Origin: Dehalococcoidia bacterium
GTDB taxonomy: Bacteria > Chloroflexota > Dehalococcoidia > Lucifugimonadales > UBA3495
Direction of reading: 5' to 3'
NCBI GenBank assembly: GCA_965224325.1
Contig: CBDCYT010000006.1
Span: forward strand, 45,286 to 109,285
Length of the DNA: 64,000 nt
The stretch's first letter is position 1, and the number at the start of each line of letters is the position of its first letter. Position numbers and translations under genes: made by a program. Positions 970-35,865 of this stretch are shown here, in pieces. The notes under the pieces are model-generated. The model had not been told where the DNA came from. It saw only the letters and a list, made by a program, of their open reading frames with translations, and made no database searches.

Positions 970-1216
970 TGTCTCATAAAGCTGAGTCCTCCAGCATCCT
1001 ATCTTTCTGGATTCCCGCGAAAGCGGGAATGACGGGTTATTGAGTCTGGATTCCCGCTCCCCGATCGGGGTCGGGGACAAGCTTCGCGGGAATGACGGAT
1101 TAGTGAGCGGCATTCAATACTGGTTTAGCCGGTCAATAATTGGTATAGGCAGTTAATAATAGTAACCCGTCAGGTTGCGTCCGCCCAAAATCGTGAGCGG
1201 AGACTTCTGAGACGGG
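970..1216 (-). mobile_element. type I mosaic MITE-like element, copy A (reverse orientation)
   Basis: Reverse complement matches the left arm, one long plus one short hairpin module and the right arm of copies B, C and D; no clear target-site duplication found for this copy. Confidence 0.6.
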
Positions 1217-1597
1217 CTCCTATCCGGGCAGACTTGGGGACGGCGCCGGTCCATTCCCATCACGTGGTCAGGGATAGTTGTCCGCATGTCAGGCTTGTTA
1301 AACATTACGCAACGGGATTCAACTCGGCGGGCCTCGGGTCGGCGCCCAAAACGGAGGTGACGTATCATCCAAATCCGGACCTGCCGTCCACGAGCCTTGA
1401 ATGCCGTCTCCCGCGCCAACCGTCAATCGAGTTGCTATATGCCTTTCCATGATATCAAGGGTCTTGTTTAGGCCTGGAGGACTGTATTTTTCGCAACCCG
1501 TAAGAGGCCGTTGGCCGGAATTTGCCAACCCTGAAAATTTTGATGGAAGTATAGCATATGAGTGTCACGAGACTTCCGGGACCAAAAGGGCCGTGTT

Positions 1598-3166
1598 TCA
1601 TCTATGGGCCTCCGCCCTAAGCCCGTTTATGGCAATAGGCAGACCTTCCATCAAGTCCGAAGCCACCATTCCGGCGTCGCCCGAGCGGTCTCGCACTTCC
1701 TCGGCAACTTGCCCGTGAAGGTACACGCCGCAGGATGCCGCGTCATCAGGCGAGAGGCCCTGAGCCATTAGCCCCGTGATGATTCCGCTCAGCACGTCAC
1801 CGGTGCCTCCGGAGGCCAAACCGGGGTTGGCGAAGGGTGAGATTCGGACCATGCCGGCCGGTTCGGCGATTACGGTGTGGGCTCCCTTGAGAGCCACGGT
1901 AACTTTCCAGCGGGTGGCCCAATGTCGAGCGGCCCCGGTCCGGTCCTGCTGCACTTGGGTGGTCCCATGTCCTGTCAAAGTAGCCATTTCCCCGGGATGG
2001 GGAGTGAGTAGCGTCGGCCTACGCAAACGCTGCCACCAATCGGCTAGTTGAGACAAGTTGTTCAGGCCGTCGGCGTCTATTAACGTGGGCATGTTTGAGT
2101 CTTGGTCCAGAAGCAACCGCTCCAGGAAGCCCGCGGTCCCCGGCGACCATCCAAGACCGCATCCCACTAGCAGCGCGTCGCAGCGGTCCATGTACGGCGT
2201 GATTATGCCGGCGGCGTCGACATGAATGCGGCCGTCGGCGTCCTCGGGGAGCGGCAGGTGAATTACCTCGGTAAGCTTGCCGGCGGCGATGGCGTAGACA
2301 CTTTCGGGGGAAGCCAGGGTTACCAGCCCAGCTCCAACCCTCAAGGCGGCTTGGGAAGCTAAGAAGGCCGCACCTATATAGTTTCTCGATCCCGCCACTA
2401 CCAACGCGTGGCCAAAGGTGCCCTTGTGGGAATCCGCGGGCCGGTGTGGCAGGCGCCGCCCGGCCCCATCAGGGGTTAGAAGCTCCAGGTCAATTTCCTG
2501 CTCTTCCCTTAGATCCGGAGGGAGGCCAATGTCCGCTACCTCCAGCTTGCCCACACGGGCGGCTCCCGGGAAGGCCAGCAACCCGGCCTTGGGTCGTCCC
2601 AAGGCCAGGGTTAGGTCTGCGATGGGGCACACCGGGTCAACCTCTCCCGAATCGGCATTGAGCCCGGTGGGGAGGTCCAAAGCCAACAGCAAAGGCGGCC
2701 GGGGCTTCTCCCGGACTTCCCGCAAGCGCAAGAGAGCGTCTTTGACAAGCCCTTGCAACGGCCGCGCCCGCCCGGTGCCCAAGACGGCGTCTATGACCAG
2801 GTGGGAACGGGCCAGAAGCTTGTCCAGCCAGTCCAGACCGGGGTCGCCGGCGGATTGGACCACCTGGACGCCGTAGCTGCGGGCCAGGTCCATCTTGGGA
2901 TCGCCGGTGGGGCGGCCGGCGATTACGTAGGCGGTGACCTCGGCTCCCCAGCGCCGCAAATGACGAGCGCTAACCAGCCCGTCGGCGCCGTTGTTCCCCG
3001 GTCCAACCAAGACTAGGACCAGCGCTCCGGCAGCCCGTCCCATCATGCGGCGGGCAGCCTCGGCTACTGCCAACCCGGCGTTTTCCATGAGAGCGTCCGT
3101 GCTGACTCCCCGATGCTGGGAGGCCTGCTCCAGCATGGTCATTTGAGCCGCGGTGACCACCTTCAT
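1598..3166 (-). CDS. nnr: bifunctional NAD(P)H-hydrate repair enzyme (epimerase / ADP-dependent dehydratase)
   Basis: 522 aa; YjeF_N-like N-terminus (LVLVGPGNNGADGLV) and carbohydrate-kinase-like C-terminus (GGTGDVLSGIITGLMAQG); its ATG overlaps the acpS stop (ATGA). Confidence 0.9.
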   Translation of the reverse strand: MKVVTAAQMTMLEQASQHRGVSTDALMENAGLAVAEAARRMMGRAAGALVLVLVGPGNNGADGLVSARHLRRWGAEVTAYVIAGRPTGDPKMDLARSYGVQVVQSAGDPGLDWLDKLLARSHLVIDAVLGTGRARPLQGLVKDALLRLREVREKPRPPLLLALDLPTGLNADSGEVDPVCPIADLTLALGRPKAGLLAFPGAARVGKLEVADIGLPPDLREEQEIDLELLTPDGAGRRLPHRPADSHKGTFGHALVVAGSRNYIGAAFLASQAALRVGAGLVTLASPESVYAIAAGKLTEVIHLPLPEDADGRIHVDAAGIITPYMDRCDALLVGCGLGWSPGTAGFLERLLLDQDSNMPTLIDADGLNNLSQLADWWQRLRRPTLLTPHPGEMATLTGHGTTQVQQDRTGAARHWATRWKVTVALKGAHTVIAEPAGMVRISPFANPGLASGGTGDVLSGIITGLMAQGLSPDDAASCGVYLHGQVAEEVRDRSGDAGMVASDLMEGLPIAINGLRAEAHR

Positions 3167-3642: not shown

Positions 3643-4524
3643 TCAACCGTGATCAGTATGTCCGGGCAGGTCTAGATTGGTCAGGATCTTGGAAACCGAA
3701 TAGCTTCTGTTGAGCACGTAGAAGTGGATACCGGGCGCCCCGGACTCCCAAAGCTCTCTTACCTGGCCGGTGGCGTAATCCACCCCAAGCTCCCGGACCG
3801 CATCGTCGTTATCGGCAAACTTTTCCAGTTGCCGGTCCAAAGAAGGGGGAATCTTGGAGCCACACAGCGAGGTGAACCGGCGGATCTGCGGCGTGCTCAG
3901 TATTGGCAGCACTCCCGGGATTATGGGAACGTCTATACCGGCCCGCTTCGCCCGGTCTGAGAAGTCGAAGTAGTCGCGATTGTCGTAAAACAGCTGAGTG
4001 ATAAGAAATTCGGCGCCGTGCGCTACTTTTAGCTTGGTGTACTCCAGATCAGCGGCCAAGTCGGTGGACTCGGTATGGCCTTCAGGATAGCAAGCGGCTG
4101 CTATGCCCAACTGGAAATGCTCCCGAATGTGGCCGATCAAGTCGGTGGCGTGACCGAACCCATCTGCAACCGGCTCTTGCTCAACCGGTCCCTGGGGTTG
4201 GTCCCCCCGGAGAGCAATGACGTTCTCGATTCCGGCGGTTTCCAACCTTTGGAGCACTCCATGGACCGCTTCTTTGGTTTGCCCCACGCAAGTCAGATGC
4301 GCCATCACCTCCAGGGCCGCTTCCGCCTTGATACGCAGTGTGATGTCCTCGGTGAACGCCCTGGTGGAGCCGCCCGCTCCGTAGGTGACCGACACAAAGT
4401 CGGGACGAAACGCCTTTAGGCGCTCAACAGTCCGAAATACTGCCGGGATCCCGTCCTCCGTCTTCGGCGGAAAAAACTCGAAGGAAATCGTCCGTGTCTT
4501 TGTTAAAATATCCTTGATTCTCAA
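3643..4524 (-). CDS. metF: methylenetetrahydrofolate reductase
   Basis: 293 aa; SFEFFPPKT...VSVTYGAGGSTR...HLTC...IENVIALRGD motifs; TTG start codon. Confidence 0.9.
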   Translation of the reverse strand: MRIKDILTKTRTISFEFFPPKTEDGIPAVFRTVERLKAFRPDFVSVTYGAGGSTRAFTEDITLRIKAEAALEVMAHLTCVGQTKEAVHGVLQRLETAGIENVIALRGDQPQGPVEQEPVADGFGHATDLIGHIREHFQLGIAAACYPEGHTESTDLAADLEYTKLKVAHGAEFLITQLFYDNRDYFDFSDRAKRAGIDVPIIPGVLPILSTPQIRRFTSLCGSKIPPSLDRQLEKFADNDDAVRELGVDYATGQVRELWESGAPGIHFYVLNRSYSVSKILTNLDLPGHTDHG

Positions 4525-4709
4525 CGTAACTGCCTATGCTCAGAACGGTGGCCGATAAGCAAATGCTCTCCCGGAGCCTGTACCCGAGACCCGGCGAGGC
4601 CAAGGACCGCATTTAACCAATCTCGGAATGGAACGGAAACCAAGCTCATGCCCAAGGGTGCGAACTCAGGTCTCCCTACGAAATTAAAGCCCAAGCAACA
4701 ATTAGCCCC

Positions 4710-4739
4710 ATCATAGCATTGGGCAAATTAGCTGTCTAA
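4710..4739 (-). promoter_or_regulatory. possible sigma70-type promoter for metF (TTAGAC-18 nt-TATGAT)
   Basis: Read by eye on the minus strand; would give a ~175-nt leader before the metF TTG start. Confidence 0.3.
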
Positions 4740-4744
4740 CCGGG

Positions 4745-5524
4745 TCAAAATAGTGGCTGCCGTTTTTCTTTGAACGCTTGGATCCCCTCAGTGGGATGGG
4801 GTGAGGTAGCCACGTACTGCGCAAAAGCCAGTCTCTCCAACGCCACTCCGTCCCGCAAGGATAGGCCCTGGCCTCTGAGAGTCACCGACTTGATCCAGCC
4901 TAGGCCGGGACGGCTCTTGGTCCGAAGTTGGGCCAGCAACTCTTCCAACTGCCCGTCCAACTCTTCAGCGGGCGCCGCCCGCAACACCAGTCCCCATTGG
5001 GCTGCGTCCGCCCCGGAAAGCCAGCGTCCGGTGGTCAGCAGTTCCATCGCCCGCTGCGACCCGATGCGCCGGGGCAGGCGTTGCGTGGAGCCTCCGCCGG
5101 GCATCAAACCGAAGTTAACGTGTTGGTCGCCTATGCGGGCGTCATTAGCCGCGATGGCCAGGTCGCACGCGAGCATCAGCTCCAGACCGCCCGCCAAAGC
5201 GAAACCATGGACCAAGGCTATGACGGGAACCGGCAATTCCTCCAACCGGAACAGAACGTCGTTCATGAGGCGTAGATAAGCATCGAGCTGGTCCGGGACG
5301 GCGAAGGAGTCCCCCAAGTAAGTGAGGTCCGCCCCGGCGCAAAAAGCCCGGCCCTCGCCTCGCACTACCAGGGCCTTGATTGCTAAGTCCGCGTTCACCT
5401 CGGCCACGGCGTCCGAGAACTCCTCGAGAAGTTGCAGACTCAGAGCATTTAAGGCGTTCGGCCGGTCCAGGCGGATAGTGGCCACCGCGTTTTCCCTTTC
5501 CAGTTTGATGTTGGTATACTTCAA
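4745..5524 (-). CDS. enoyl-CoA hydratase/isomerase family protein
   Basis: Crotonase motifs (RAFCAGADL, GFALAGGLELMLACD) lie only in the C-terminal 259 aa of the 444-aa ORF; in-frame TTG at 5524 with AGGAG 11 nt upstream; the upstream extension is Pro/Arg-rich and non-protein-like. Confidence 0.85.
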   Translation of the reverse strand: MKYTNIKLERENAVATIRLDRPNALNALSLQLLEEFSDAVAEVNADLAIKALVVRGEGRAFCAGADLTYLGDSFAVPDQLDAYLRLMNDVLFRLEELPVPVIALVHGFALAGGLELMLACDLAIAANDARIGDQHVNFGLMPGGGSTQRLPRRIGSQRAMELLTTGRWLSGADAAQWGLVLRAAPAEELDGQLEELLAQLRTKSRPGLGWIKSVTLRGQGLSLRDGVALERLAFAQYVATSPHPTEGIQAFKEKRQPLF

Positions 5525-32942: not shown

Positions 32943-33731
32943 TTACTTGGCCCGGTATTGAGGTTGCCGCTTGTCCACGAAAGCCTGGCTGGACTCCTTG
33001 AAGTCTTCAGTGAGGTGGAGCTTCAACGACTGGATGAACATGTCCGCACCCGCCGTTGGCTGGACCCATTGGCGGCGGGCCAGGTGCACCCCGGCGCGGG
33101 AGGCCAGAGGAGGCGCTTTGAGCACCTTCTCAGCCAACTCTTGGGCCACCTCCAAGTGCTGGCCGGTAGGCGCCAAACGGTTGATGAGTCCAAGGCGGTA
33201 GAGCTCAGGGGCGGCCACGGGCTCACCGGTGATGACCAACTCGCTTAAGATCTTGGAAGGCATGAAGGCGTTAAGCTTGGCCCAGACTCGACCTCCGGGC
33301 AGTCCCCGCCGGGTTTCGGCAATACCGAACTGGGTCTCTTCCGAGGCCACGATCAGATCGCATTCAGCGGCGATAGCCATGCCGTAGCCCAGGGCGTAAC
33401 CGTGGACCGCGGCAATCACGGGTTTCCAATGGATGGAGCGGCCCAGAAAGCCTTCCGGGTTATAGCCTCCTTCCCGCGCCGCCCGCTGCTGGGGCGTCAT
33501 GTTGACGAAGCGCTGCTTGACGTCTGCGCCGGCGCAAAAACTGCGGCCTGCCCCATGGATAATGGCTATCCAAGCATCTTCGTCGACGTCGAACTCCAGC
33601 AAGGCGGCATGAAGATCGCGCTCGAACTGGTCATTGACCGCGTTGAGCGCCTGAGGACGGTTGAAGGTAATGTAACCGGTTTTTGCCGTCCTGCTGTAGA
33701 CCATGGTCTCGTATTCAGCCATGTGGAACAC
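32943..33731 (-). CDS. enoyl-CoA hydratase/isomerase family protein
   Basis: 262 aa; GAGRSFCAGADV, HGYALGYGMAIAAECD. Confidence 0.9.
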   Translation of the reverse strand: MFHMAEYETMVYSRTAKTGYITFNRPQALNAVNDQFERDLHAALLEFDVDEDAWIAIIHGAGRSFCAGADVKQRFVNMTPQQRAAREGGYNPEGFLGRSIHWKPVIAAVHGYALGYGMAIAAECDLIVASEETQFGIAETRRGLPGGRVWAKLNAFMPSKILSELVITGEPVAAPELYRLGLINRLAPTGQHLEVAQELAEKVLKAPPLASRAGVHLARRQWVQPTAGADMFIQSLKLHLTEDFKESSQAFVDKRQPQYRAK

Positions 33732-33850
33732 CTCCGGGCTTGGGTTTCATTGGTCCTTGGCCCGACTACTGGGGAGTCCGGATGGGCCTCGGATCACCAT
33801 TCTACCAGCAAGCTGTCGTCGGCGGCTCCTGGGCCGCCGGATTTGCCTGG

Positions 33851-34039
33851 GCCATTTAGTTATCGCGACGACTCCTGTTTTCCCATGCACTTTGGGCTTG
33901 TCCAATGGCAGTGCAACATCAAGAACGCATGGATTCCCGCTTTCGCTGGAATGACGGGTGAGCCGCGGGAAAGGCGGGTGAGCGGTGGGCATGACGGGTG
34001 AGCGGCGGGTATGACCGGCGGCACACAATTAACACACCC
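33851..34039 (+). repeat. type III mosaic element, copy a
   Basis: Shares GCCMTTTAGTTATYGCGACGACTCCTGTTTTCCCATGCACTTTGGGYTTGTCCAATGGCAGTSCAACATCAAGAACGYATGGATTCCCGCTTTCGC... and ...GGCGGCACACAATTAAMACACCC with 34977-35385. Confidence 0.75.
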
Positions 34040-34343
34040 CGGGGTGATAGGCGGCCCAGGGGAGGAGGGCGCGAAGGAGGCGCTCCGGGCTGGGTTCCTG
34101 ACGGATAGAGGCGCAGCGTTCAAGGTAGCGGGCGGCAACGGAGAAGGTCGGGAGAAGGAAACCCGCGGCGGCGACCCGGCGAACGAAGGCCTGGGGAGAA
34201 GGTGTGGGCCGCTTATCCGCCTGGGCGCGAGCCCATGGGGTGCAGAGGTCGCCGGCCGCGCGTTGGACCATGAGCTGGGCGTAGGGCAGAGCCAATCTCC
34301 GGCGAAGGGAGCGGATGCGGGCCCGCAAAGAGCTAATGTTCAT
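34029..34343 (-). CDS. hypothetical 104-aa protein (cargo of the composite insertion)
   Basis: ATG 34343 with GAGGAGA 7 nt upstream; protein-like, GC3-rich sequence MNISSLRARIRSLRRRLALPYAQLMVQRAAGDL...; stop codon lies inside the end of type III copy a. Confidence 0.5.
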   Translation of the reverse strand: MNISSLRARIRSLRRRLALPYAQLMVQRAAGDLCTPWARAQADKRPTPSPQAFVRRVAAAGFLLPTFSVAARYLERCASIRQEPSPERLLRALLPWAAYHPGVC

Positions 34344-34410
34344 ACAGATTTCTCCTCGTGATTCGAGAGCCTCACCACGAACGGGGAAGGGCGCCCCGCG
34401 TGAGCGATGT

Positions 34411-34861
34411 TCATACGGATTTCTCCCGGGCGGTCCAAAGGGGCAGGGCGGCCTCCAGGGTCTGGACCTGGTCATGCAGGTCTTGGATTTCGGGATTTCG
34501 GGATTTCGCCAAATTTGGCGGAGTAATTGAGGACGGCGCGAATGGCGCGGAGGCGGATTTCCGGGTCTTGATTCTCCGGGTCTTGATTCTCGGGTTTTGA
34601 TTCTCGGGGAGGTTGCCGGGGTGAATGACAGCTTGAAAGGTGAGGCTTTGGAGGCAGCCTTTGGCGAGGTCGGCGGACTGGCGCTGCAGTTGGGCAAGTT
34701 GGTCGCGGAATTCGGGGTCCTGGAGTCAACGGTGCAAAGTGCGGCGGCCCACTCTGGAGAAGCGGGAGGCCTGGGCAATGGGCGGCGACGAGAATGGGGA
34801 GCGCCGATTGCTGGCGTGGAGAGAGGCCGGAGTTTTTTATTTCAGGGCCGTTGTGAGCCAT
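34411..34861 (-). pseudogene. decayed HTH-type (phage/plasmid-style) regulator gene
   Basis: The protein-like reading alternates between two frames. Segments are MAHNGPEIKNSGLSPRQQSALPILVAA | PIAQASRFSRVGRRTLHR-TGA-LQDPEFRDQLAQLQRQSADLAKGCLQSLTFQAVIHPGNLPENQ | PEIRLRAIRAVLNYSAKFGEI | QDLHDQVQTLEAALPLWTAREKSV. Two of the three frame switches coincide with tandem duplications. Confidence 0.5.
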
Positions 34862-34894
34862 TGCCTCAGTGGCCGTTTGATAGATTTGGCAGGG

Positions 34895-34916
34895 TGCTAA
34901 TAGCTGCCTATTAGCA
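34895..34916. promoter_or_regulatory. AT-rich perfect palindrome TGCTAATAG-ctgc-CTATTAGCA (operator-like)
   Basis: 9-bp inverted repeat about 35 nt upstream of the pseudogene ATG; compositionally unlike the GC-rich surroundings. Confidence 0.3.
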
Positions 34917-34976
34917 GCGTAGGGAGTGGTCGCCGGAGGGGTCAAGGGCGAAGTGTCGGGAGTTTAGGACGAGGGG

Positions 34977-35385
34977 GCCCTTTAGTTATTGCGACGACTC
35001 CTGTTTTCCCATGCACTTTGGGTTTGTCCAATGGCAGTCCAACATCAAGAACGTATGGATTCCCGCTTTCGCGGGAAAGACGGGGGAGCGGCGGGATGGA
35101 TTCCCGCTCCCCGGTCGGGGCCGGGGACAAGCTTCACGGGAATGACGGGTGAGCGGCGGTATGGATCCCCGCTCCCCGATCGGGGCCGGGGACAAGCTTC
35201 GCGGGAAAGACGGGTGAGCGGCGGGATGGATTCCCGCTCCCTGATCGGGGCCGGGGACAAGCTTCGCGGGAAAGACGGGTGAGCGGCGGGATGGATTTTC
35301 GCTCTCTAATCGGGGCCGGGGACAAGCTTCGCGGGAAAGACGGGTGAGCGGCGGGTATGACGGGCGGCACACAATTAAAACACCC
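34977..35385 (+). repeat. type III mosaic element, copy b
   Basis: Same arms as 33851-34039 but with an expanded hairpin-module array. Confidence 0.75.
35098..35357 (+). repeat. 4 tandem copies (~64-nt period) of the long hairpin module plus linker
   Basis: GGATTCCCGCTCCCCGATCGGGGCCGGGGACAAGCTTCGCGGGAAAGACGGGTGAGCGGCGGGAT repeated with starts near 35098, 35163, 35227 and 35293. Confidence 0.85.
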
Positions 35386-35453
35386 TGCCGTATTTACCTG
35401 GCGCGCGGCGCGGGGCAAAGCGGATTTGGTTGCCAAACCGCCGTCAAAAGGTA

Positions 35454-35483
35454 TTGACGGTACAAGAACAGGCGTTCTATAAT
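35454..35483 (+). promoter_or_regulatory. near-consensus sigma70-type promoter (TTGACG-18 nt-TATAAT)
   Basis: Read directly; about 35 nt upstream of the Cys-rich HTH ORF. Confidence 0.5.
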
Positions 35484-35520
35484 CGTCGCAATATTAGAAC
35501 GTATGTTTCGGAGGATGGCC

Positions 35521-35865
35521 ATGACTACGTCCCAACTAGCCAAGCCCCGGCCCGCTGATTCCACGGCGGACGCCATTCCGGAGTATTACCACTATGAAGA
35601 CACGGGGTGTGAAATATCTCCTTCCTGTCTCAACTGTCCCTTGCCCCAGTGCAAGTACGATGATCCCGGTTGGTTTCAGAGGAGCCGACGGATGGCCCGG
35701 GACTTGAAGGTTTGGTCGACGATCCAATCGGGAGGTCTAACGGTGGAGGAAGCGGCGGAACACTTTTCAGTGACGGTGCGGACGGTTTTCCGGATCATGC
35801 GCCGCTGCCGGGACGTGGCGGGGGAGACCGACGCCGCAGCATTAGCGGCCTTTGCCGCGGACTAA
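35521..35865 (+). CDS. small Cys-rich HTH protein
   Basis: ORF 35503..35865; ATG 35521 has GGAGG 6 nt upstream. N-terminal C-x5-C-x2-C-x4-C (CEISPSCLNCPLPQC), C-terminal HTH-like LTVEEAAEHFSVTVRTVFRIMRR. Confidence 0.6.
   Translation: MTTSQLAKPRPADSTADAIPEYYHYEDTGCEISPSCLNCPLPQCKYDDPGWFQRSRRMARDLKVWSTIQSGGLTVEEAAEHFSVTVRTVFRIMRRCRDVAGETDAAALAAFAAD

Follow-up and report, generated by a model that had tools for sequence, protein, structure and literature searches.

Mobile insertion cassettes (MICs), for example MIC231 of Bacillus cereus, consist of passenger genes that lie between IS-type inverted ends. They are named in the work on TIME-COMP elements, which are composite non-autonomous transposons formed by two Tn3-derived MITEs, both in the same orientation in the case of TIME-COMP2 (Szuplewska et al. 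2014, PMC4133298). The block considered here, which we analysed in a window of 64,000 nt (the whole stretch of DNA under study) from a Dehalococcoidia bacterium, resembles TIME-COMP in several respects: two MITEs flank a core without transposition genes, a target duplication bounds the whole unit, and a second MITE would have landed near resident DNA that was then mobilised by a transposase provided in trans. However, the block is of the ISAs1 type (CAGGG ends and a 10-bp duplication), whereas TIME-COMP is of the Tn3 type (38-bp inverted repeats and a 5-bp duplication); it is chromosomal, belongs to an uncultured member of the Dehalococcoidia, is present in seven copies and has visibly damaged inner ends; and its mobility is read from its anatomy, while TIME-COMP was trapped experimentally.

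MICs likewise possess no transposase and have passenger genes that are mobilised in trans, but their passenger genes are enclosed by a single pair of ends, whereas here a complete MITE stands on each side of the cargo, in a composite geometry. As in Tn5 and Tn10, two copies of an element bracket passenger DNA, with the outer ends apparently used and the inner ones disfavoured, although here the flanks are non-coding MITEs of 0.2-0.4 kb that invariably point the same way and carry no transposase gene. The ISAs1 family of insertion sequences has inverted repeats of 14-22 bp that start with CAGGG, and a 10-bp direct repeat (PMC11946415; ISArsp11 in PMC6305408); the block has such termini and such a repeat, and nearly identical ends are found in related genomes, but it contains no transposase gene and its interior, a left arm and hairpin arrays, is unrelated. 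We consider it probable, at roughly 0.7, that the block is a composite, non-autonomous transposon built from two ISAs1-type MITEs. In the following, G000 is the genome under study, G001 and the other G numbers are its relatives, and C numbers are contigs of G000.

Limits of the block and its MITE family

The 1.54-kb block is made up of a cargo of 0.93 kb between two direct copies of one MITE. Two directly repeated mosaic elements had been described here in an earlier note on this DNA, and both are present: the copies share a left arm of 122 nt with 93% identity (33849-33970 vs 34975-35096) and a right end of 53 nt with 92% identity (33987-34039 vs 35333-35385), and repeat probes of 30 nt and 23 nt each had two exact matches in the window, with none expected. 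The flanking repeat that had been proposed as a duplication (ATTTGCCTGG / ATTTACCTGG) also exists, but the ends assigned to the element had to be moved, the outer ends lying 4 nt further left (CTGG) and 2 nt further right (TG), so that the block extends from 33847 to 35387. The consensus at its left tip is CAGG, of which CTGG is a degenerate form. We fixed the register of the duplication from 13 solo MITEs with duplications of 9-10/10, and in this register the left copy CCGGATTTGC (33837-33846) matches the right copy CCGTATTTAC (35388-35397) at 8/10 positions, for which, with the register fixed, we calculated a chance probability of about 4e-4. A 14-nt reading gives a match of 12/14, between CCGGATTTGCCTGG at 33837-33850 and the sequence at 35388-35401.

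The short copy, MITE1 (33847-34041, plus strand), begins with the left inverted end CTGGGCCATTTAGTTAT, followed by a left arm of about 110 nt, one ATTCCC-N8-GGGAAT-type hairpin (33930-33955), 20-nt repeats (33944-34015) and the right end …GGCACACAATTAACACACCCCG, whose inner terminus reads CCCCG in place of CCCTG. MITE2 (34976-35387, plus strand), composed of a left arm, a hairpin array and an intact outer right end (…GGCACACAATTAAAACACCCTG), is longer because it contains 4.4 copies of a 65-nt hairpin unit (35068-35355); at its inner left end the first 3 nt or so of the inverted repeat are missing (GGGGGCCCTTTAG vs the consensus CAGGGCCCTTTAG). No transposition genes were found by profile searches of the core between the two copies (34042-34975).

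To judge from its ends and its distribution, the flanking repeat is a true MITE. About 60 copies are present in the genome (about 60 left ends and at least 38 right ends), and at least 41 full-length copies of the left arm occur genome-wide with 89-94% identity. The inverted ends are CAGGGTCTTTTAGTT…AATTAAAACACCCTG, and the terminal inverted repeats agree at 15/17 positions (CAGGGTCTTTTAGTTTT vs the reverse complement of the right end, CAGGGTGTTTTAATTGT). Solo copies show target duplications in one fixed 10-nt register, perfect in seven cases and 9/10 in six; they are typically 133-409 nt long and contain no ORF that matches a family. A search of 40 relatives found the MITE to be restricted to the species of G000. 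Other kinds of repeat were considered and rejected: an integron attC or cassette array on account of the dispersed copies, the inverted ends, the 10-bp duplications and the same cargo every time; an IS200/IS605-type palindrome element on account of the target duplications; and the repeat pair of a diversity-generating retroelement on account of some 60 copies and no reverse transcriptase. As a non-coding RNA, the repeat had no Rfam match at E ≤ 1.

CAGGG ends together with a 10-bp duplication are hallmarks of the ISAs1 family, which would thus be the source family of the MITE. Full-length ISAs1 elements of 1.23-1.27 kb, with ends CAGGG[TC]CTTTTCATT, are present in three relatives (G012, G023 and G019), one of them with a duplication of 9/10, and CAGGGYCTTTTCATT-type ends occur on those of G012 and G023. 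The ends of these full-length elements are identical to those of a sister 'type II' MITE, while the closest of them (…TTTTCATT) agree with the ends of the present MITE (…TTTTAGTT / …TTTTAATT) at only 13/15 positions. Within G000, the C-terminus of an ISAs1 transposase directly abuts the end CAGGGCCTTTTCATT in a remnant at C7:509752. An intact cognate transposase was not found in the G000 assembly, where we detected three ISAs1 fragments, none of which reaches the NF033564 cut-off; a piece resembling ISAs1 on C5 has decayed, and no transposase adjoins the variant CAGGG ends. When the whole genome was scanned for CAGGG…CCCTG pairs separated by 0.7-3.5 kb, only MITE pairs around ordinary genes were returned, and the ends of the 19 multi-copy DDE elements of G000 are all different. 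With no transposase in the block and only sub-cut-off fragments in the genome, the element is therefore a dependant of ISAs1 and not a member insertion sequence. Since only such fragments are left, the composite is probably immobile in G000 now.

The captured module and its genes

The cargo (34042-34975, minus strand) is the captured part of a module, here called X, and comprises a promoter region, ORF1 and a 3'-truncated ORF2. Its first 10 nt (GGGTGATAGG) and its last 10 nt (AGGACGAGGG) correspond to the duplications of two original MITE insertions at the founder locus discussed below. X is an old chromosomal two-gene module that is conserved across several genera of Dehalococcoidia. It occupies at least 13 loci in G001 and also occurs in G009, G015, G020 and G028; in G001, G009 and G015 it occurs without these MITEs, and in distant relatives the gene pair is found in ordinary chromosomal contexts. 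The cargo is consequently not the orphan, unique sequence for which it had been taken, being conserved in this way and having seven full and several partial copies in G000 itself.

ORF1 (34411-34861, minus strand) is the decayed HTH gene recognised from the sequence before, and is indeed a pseudogene. Its intact form has 136 aa, with an N-terminal HTH and then a long helical hairpin, a small-terminase-like layout that is also seen in its structural model (pLDDT 85.9). The window copy carries a 5-nt deletion, a TGG-to-TGA change and an expansion of a 14/15-nt repeat (34556-34609), and the 8-mer GGATTTCG is found in three copies at 34485-34508 vs one in G001; the gene is frameshifted in all seven G000 copies. 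Against Pfam PF13022 (small terminase / HTH_Tnp_1_2) ORF1 scored 17.7-18.3 bits, below the cut-off of 27.9, and some of its distant homologues carry a precomputed match to this family; against the PHROG small terminase the E-values were 2.7e-4 to 5.3e-4, again below threshold. Foldseek gave weak matches to 2ao9 (probability 0.96-0.99, E 0.02-0.05, TM 0.3-0.5) and to the TerS of phage E217 (E 0.7). A phage- or plasmid-like nature had been proposed for the module; it comes down to this weak small-terminase-like resemblance of the HTH protein, and a tblastn search with the cargo proteins had no match in 50,697 phage records.

ORF2 (34029-34343, minus strand) encodes a 104-aa protein, predicted to be all-helical, without a match to any known family. 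MITE1 supplies its last codons (…GVC-stop) together with the TAA stop, which had correctly been said to lie in the element end; the gene is 3'-truncated by the MITE, and its C-terminus is longer in relatives. It is intact in six of the seven G000 copies, with a dN/dS of 0.3-0.6, and its homologues form 35 clusters, none of them named. No match was found for ORF2 in Pfam, NCBIfam, PADLOC or PDB sequence profiles, and its predicted structure (pLDDT 75.6) had no fold match in Foldseek; for the two proteins together, Pfam, PHROGs, PADLOC and NCBIfam gave nothing above threshold and PDB sequence profiles nothing significant.

Like ORF2, the 24-codon mini-ORF (34340-34414, minus strand) is a real reading frame, as had been reported. 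It lies inside a spacer of about 71 nt bounded by two 20-nt copies of the ORF1-stop/ORF2-start junction (34336-34355 and 34407-34426), which are the two occurrences, 71 nt apart, of the RBS-ATG junction described before. The same spacer is seen in G001, of the same genus, but G009 and G015 do not have it, and their ORF1 directly overlaps ORF2. Upstream of ORF1 the palindrome TGCTAATAG-CTGC-CTATTAGCA (34895-34916), also listed before as part of the cargo, can be read from the sequence; it is perfect only in the window copy and in the founder copy, and may serve X as an operator or a promoter element.

The layout of ORF1 and ORF2, taken alone, is similar to that of a toxin-antitoxin system (HTH gene first, overlapping stop and start, upstream palindrome). 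Assignment to the type II toxin-antitoxin pairs was not supported, ORF2 having no match to a toxin or antitoxin family in Pfam, NCBIfam, PADLOC or the PDB.

Copies of the unit and the founder locus

The left neighbour of the block is an enoyl-CoA hydratase gene (32943-33731, minus strand; PF00378, E=9e-38), whose start codon is 116 nt from the insertion, and its right neighbour consists of a strong promoter-like site (35454-35483, 11/12) and the gene of a 120-aa HTH protein (together 35454-35865, plus strand). Given the strands of the two genes, the insertion lies in a divergent intergenic region. In four relatives, from four genera (G001, G009, G015 and G012), nothing stands between the hydratase and small regulator genes, an emptiness that holds at the level of the locus, the intergenic region of G001 being shorter and its sequence near the insertion point too diverged for an exact alignment. 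We found no relative that carries the interior genes at this locus without the flanking elements.

The MITE–cargo–MITE unit is present in seven full copies at seven loci on six contigs of G000, the cargo with 90-96% identity, besides the several partial, internally deleted copies of the cargo. In all seven the inner MITE/cargo junctions are identical, and the cargo sequences group together as a single clade when set against G001 and G015. The outer duplications are 8/10 in the window, 9/10 on C17 and 10/10 on C20, while the flanks of the single MITEs in these three copies do not match each other; the duplications of the window and C20 read as 13-14 nt instead of 10. Three of the seven copies miss one recognisable outer end. 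These last two features, like the 13/15 agreement with the closest ISAs1 ends and the lack of an intact cognate transposase, speak against the composite reading. The earlier proposal that the block was inserted as one unit, bounded by a pair of MITEs, is nevertheless supported by the flanking duplication, by the empty site in the four relatives and by the same unit at six other loci, some of which have duplications of their own.

One copy is different. At C7 each MITE has its own duplication and a duplication at the level of the composite is absent; homology to G001 runs colinearly through both MITEs, with a subject overlap of 10-19 nt at each; and the flanks, into which the cargo continues, show synteny to G015 at the left and to G001 at the right. 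These features mark C7 as the founder locus, and the capture happened there and not, as had been supposed, at the window locus.

Movement of the unit and alternative explanations

Two MITEs inserted independently and in the same orientation at the resident C7 locus, each with its own 10-bp duplication, one into the 3' end of ORF2 and the other just upstream of the promoter region of X. In the mechanism that we propose, an ISAs1-family transposase acting in trans would then have used the two intact outer ends and moved MITE1, cargo and MITE2 in one piece, with a new 10-bp duplication at each move. The use of the outer ends is expected from the damage to the inner ones (about 3 nt missing on the left, CCCCG for CCCTG on the right). 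Such moves would have produced the seven full and several internally deleted copies, among them the one now between the hydratase and HTH regulator genes. In three copies the cargo is 99.4-99.8% identical while the outer MITE1 segments are only 83-94% identical, which requires gene conversion or another copying route, and some cargo copies have probably been homogenised later by gene conversion.

That last observation is also part of the case for homologous recombination, which we regard as unlikely. Here the direct MITEs would loop out a circle (the cargo plus one hybrid MITE) that enters a solo MITE elsewhere or, in a variant, a gene-conversion tract would enter a solo MITE, and the flanking duplication would be that of the old solo MITE. 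The MITEs are always in direct orientation, around 60 solo MITEs are available as targets, and the near-identity of the three copies runs only from about 55 nt before to about 110-170 nt after the cargo. The outer left arms look heterogeneous (their first four bases are CTGG, CGGG, CCGG, CAGG, CATC or GAAG, and the seven are not clearly monophyletic), which counts against the composite reading as well, although the sister copies on C6 and C17 have derived sites in common in this arm. Hairpin arrays and MITE lengths vary between copies (173-1288 nt and 151-411 nt), but the number of array units varies in solo MITEs too. With recombination, the last 20 nt or so of the outer right end would be those of the resident MITE, mostly the common CAGACA, whereas all five outer right ends found with cargo have the minority CACACA/CGCACA, common to the founder, vs about 12/48 among the other right ends, and we calculated the probability of this by chance as roughly 0.001.

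In G001, X occurs within different CAGGG-ended composites, with duplications of 10/10 and 8/10, and a second MITE family abuts the same end of X. That X, its upstream palindrome included, is a selfish two-gene module (for example for addiction or exclusion) that repeatedly hitch-hikes inside CAGGG-ended, ISAs1-type elements would account for its high copy number and for its presence, in two species of the genus, within MITE composites that arose independently, and we mention it as a speculative and rather improbable possibility. More doubtful still is that X is itself mobile, its HTH and 104-aa proteins being mobility functions that insert it into or beside CAGGG-type MITEs. This would explain its multi-copy and MITE-associated state in the two species, and the copy number in G001, its presence in four further relatives and the composites just described are in its favour. 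However, no catalytic domain was found: ORF2 has neither an invariant acidic triad nor an HUH motif, and no transposase or recombinase model matched either protein above threshold. The unit spread although ORF1 is broken in every G000 copy, X itself lacks both inverted ends and a duplication, its limits in G000 being exactly the two MITE insertion points, and ordinary chromosomal contexts are where the gene pair stands in distant relatives. The cargo genes thus have no demonstrated part in movement. Finally, that the cargo was native to the window locus and that two MITEs inserted independently on either side of it, as they did at C7, is already refuted by the empty sites and by inner junctions that match those of C7 base for base, and here the outer flanks form a duplication into which the cargo does not extend.

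Read as a composite transposon, the block is a tidy example of a known, TIME-COMP-like process and not a new kind of element. It indicates that short non-coding MITEs can capture and amplify a chromosomal gene module, with a founder locus that keeps both original insertions; to our knowledge, such founder loci are rarely preserved. With it, the range of MITE-pair composites takes in the ISAs1 family and uncultured Dehalococcoidia, and it brings to light an unstudied, lineage-restricted two-gene module, encoding an HTH and a 104-aa protein, that recurs in mobile contexts. It also accounts for the seven 'orphan' ORF copies and the several broken HTH genes of this genome.

MITEs flanking the insertion and their putative transposase

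The region 33600-35700 of the window contains the same repeat twice in direct orientation, and the two elements proposed in the earlier note indeed agree at 93% over a left arm of 122 nt and at 92% over a right end of 53 nt. Probes from either repeat end have two exact matches each in the 64-kb window and none in shuffled sequences. A 65-nt hairpin unit, present 4.4 times in MITE2 (34976-35387), makes it longer than MITE1 (33847-34041). The genome to which the window belongs spans 3.76 Mb on 21 contigs; at least 41 full-length left arms (110 nt, 89-94% identity) were counted in it, and a finer scan gave about 60 left and at least 38 right ends. Aligned with their flanks, the solo copies are a classical MITE, with inverted ends CAGGGTCTTTTAGTT… and …AATTAAAACACCCTG matching at 15 of 17 positions. 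Duplications were scored in a fixed register (10 nt, CAGG…CCCTG, 10 nt), where seven solo copies have a 10/10 duplication and six 9/10. From this alignment and these duplications it follows that the element begins 4 nt before and finishes 2 nt after the ends first assigned to it; the repeat pair and the flanking near-repeat stand, but those end coordinates do not.

Hairpin units, variable in number, sit between left arm and right end, giving copies of stepwise increasing length, about 145, 205-216, 275 and 334 nt. The full-length left arm was found in this genome and in none of the 40 relatives searched; the only part common to other genera is a hairpin of about 30 nt (GGATTCCCGC-TTT-CGCGGGAAT, of the form ATTCCC-N8-GGGAAT; window 33930-33955 and 35068-35355), which has many copies there (G012, G018, G020, G021, G035 and others) and which may resemble the dRS3 motif of Neisseria. 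Head-to-tail arrays of three to four MITEs, with an identical 13-14-nt spacer between neighbours (GGACATCCTAGACG; CGGATCCCCTAAA), occur on two contigs of the window's genome, at C20:158057-158753 and C7:103021-103665, an arrangement that suggests tandem amplification of the MITE plus its duplication via unequal exchange.

The ISAs1 family is recognised by ends starting with CAGGG together with a direct repeat of 10 bp (PMC11946415); ISArsp11, for example, is 1,306 bp long, with IRL CAGGGCTGATGC… and a 10-bp DR (PMC6305408). The genome has about 100 DDE_Tnp_1 matches, the ends of the multi-copy IS elements examined in it differ from those of the MITE, and ISAs1 transposase is represented by three fragments only, all below the family cut-off. 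One of these fragments, near the end of contig C7 (509752-510110), is a decayed transposase C-terminus that borders directly on CAGGGCCTTTTCATT; this end belongs to a sister MITE family ('type II') found elsewhere in the window and matches the ends of the MITE under study at 13 of 15 positions. The fragment is likely what is left of the autonomous partner on which these MITE families depended. Homologous full-length ISAs1 elements of 1.23-1.27 kb occur in three genomes of related genera (G012, G023, G019), both ends being CAGGG[TC]CTTTTCATT…; one of them has a 9/10 duplication and further elements of the family have perfect 10-bp duplications. From these matches we infer that an ISAs1-family transposase would mobilise these MITEs in trans.

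Copies of the cargo and the founder locus

The cargo, whose 104-aa ORF the earlier note called an orphan, is not unique: the 937 bp between the MITEs recur as seven full copies on six contigs, beside several internally deleted ones, at 90-94% BLAST identity (92-96% ungapped). Its boundaries are identical in every copy (…ACACCC/CGGGGTGATAGG… and …AGGACGRGGGG/GCCYTTTAG…, the slash marking the junction), and therefore the composite was built once. At about C7:122,100-123,460 a MITE-cargo-MITE unit lacks a composite-level duplication and is colinear across both MITEs with one cargo copy of G001, a genome of the same genus. G001 positions 3955-4039 correspond to the flank left of MITE1, 4021-4934 to the cargo and 4925-5031 to the flank on the right of MITE2; the 10-19-nt overlaps in G001 are each MITE's own duplication, GGGTGATRGG (9/10) and AGGACGRGGG. 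Synteny links 780 nt of the left flank to G015, a relative from another genus, and the right flank to G001. Colinearity, separate duplications and flank synteny therefore indicate that two MITEs inserted into a module that was already resident there and vertically inherited. After both insertions, all DNA between them would have been mobilised; every copy has changed inner MITE ends (the left lacks about 3 nt of CAGGG, the right reads CCCCG), which would explain why the outer ends are used. About 2 kb from the founder, C7:120225-120642 carries a second, truncated cargo end with a MITE and a right flank (AGGATGAGGGGGGG…) resembling the founder's, and may have arisen when part of the founder was duplicated locally.

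Probable movement of the composite

That the whole composite (33847-35387) inserted as one unit, as the earlier note proposed, is supported by duplications on three copies and by the lack of an insert between the same neighbours in relatives. These copies keep both outer ends, each with its own flanking duplication: 8/10 in the window (CCGGATTTGC/CCGTATTTAC), 9/10 on C17 with the register shifted by one, and 10/10 on C20 (TTACCGGAGT). With the joined flanks of the window copy as query, the two neighbouring genes, for an enoyl-CoA hydratase and a 120-aa HTH protein, adjoin in G001 with a 78-bp gap and lie side by side in G009, G015 and G012; the empty site is found at the level of the locus, the intergenic region of G001 having diverged too far for one exact to the base.

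Alternatively, solo MITEs already in place might have acquired the composite through homologous recombination or gene conversion, as the outer left arms of its copies are not clearly a single clade, MITE lengths vary from copy to copy, and three cargos that are 99.4-99.8% alike (C15:103515-104442, C7:342212-343139, C12:66557-67484) are far less alike in their outer parts, with MITE1 segments just 83-94% alike. Each of the three lacks one recognisable outer end, and it looks as though gene conversion between scattered copies has recently homogenised their central part. However, recombination predicts the resident MITE's last 20 nt or so at the outer right end, whereas a minority C[A/G]CACA variant occurs on all five outer right ends against about 12 of 48 others, and the sister copies C6 and C17 have derived outer-left-arm bases in common. 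The favoured reading is unit transposition with later gene conversion between certain copies.

Composite copies differ in the four bases that open the outer left end (CTGG, CCGG, CGGG, CAGG, CATC, GAAG). These bases match the four bases past the right duplication at 4/4 in the window (33847-33850 versus 35398-35401), 3/4 on C20 (368250) and 3/4 at the founder MITE1 (C7:123463), so that here the duplication reads 13-14 nt; most solo MITEs have a 10-nt duplication and about 1/4 match at the following four bases. The window insertion lies in a divergent intergenic region (33732-35502), 116 nt upstream of the hydratase start codon and about 65 nt upstream of a strong promoter-like site (35454-35483) for the HTH protein, and may have split the hydratase gene from shared regulatory DNA.

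Cargo genes and related composites

In relatives the intact module consists of ORF1 (136 aa) and ORF2 (about 104 aa), which overlap in G009 and G015 and are separated by a spacer of about 70-160 nt in the genus of the window's genome and G001. In the window's genome the spacer is a mini-ORF bounded by a duplicated junction; the 20-nt RBS-ATG junction repeated 71 nt apart, the 24-codon mini-ORF and the 104-aa ORF are present as earlier described. ORF1 is weakly small-terminase-like: its model combines an N-terminal HTH with a long helical hairpin (pLDDT 85.9), matches to PHROG small terminases are weak, the best fold matches (2ao9 and phage TerS) have marginal E-values, and the PF13022 score is below cut-off. 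An extra 8-mer, GGATTTCG, breaks ORF1 in 7/7 copies of the genome (three units in the window, at 34485-34508, and two in the other six), while G001 has a single unit and an intact ORF1. In addition to its third unit, the window copy shows a TGG-to-TGA change and has lost 5 nt. ORF1 had already been inactivated by short-repeat expansion when the composite spread. ORF2 is all-helical, has no match in family and fold searches, and belongs with 35 homologue clusters, none of them named; its dN/dS between genera is 0.3-0.6. Its stop codon does lie inside the element end, MITE1 having removed the last codons and supplying the stop. Any function ascribed to the cargo genes is putative, and the cargo has no match among phage genomes, defence-system models and Rfam.

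The ORF1-ORF2 pair is confined to Dehalococcoidia MAGs, and in more distant Dehalococcoidia it stands in ordinary chromosomal contexts. G001 has at least 13 module copies, two of them enclosed by different composites that have CAGGG ends and duplications of 10/10 and 8/10 (positions 1702-2998 of locus L101, which is OZ244707.1:618549-623857, and positions 1180-3003 of locus L094), built from other CAGGG-ended MITE families than those of the window's genome; one is 1,297 bp long with a perfect 10-bp duplication (AGGGCGGGTA). A MITE in G001 abuts the same module end as MITE2.

Among elements already described, the nearest are TIME-COMP composites from Pseudomonas, where two Tn3-derived MITEs mobilise a core without transposition genes; in TIME-COMP2 the MITEs have the same orientation, and it originated when a MITE transposed beside resident DNA (PMC4133298). 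The window composite, whose movement we infer from its sequence, would work similarly, but its MITEs are of ISAs1 type, it now numbers seven copies and its founder locus survives. It would thus add to an already known, TIME-COMP-like kind of element.
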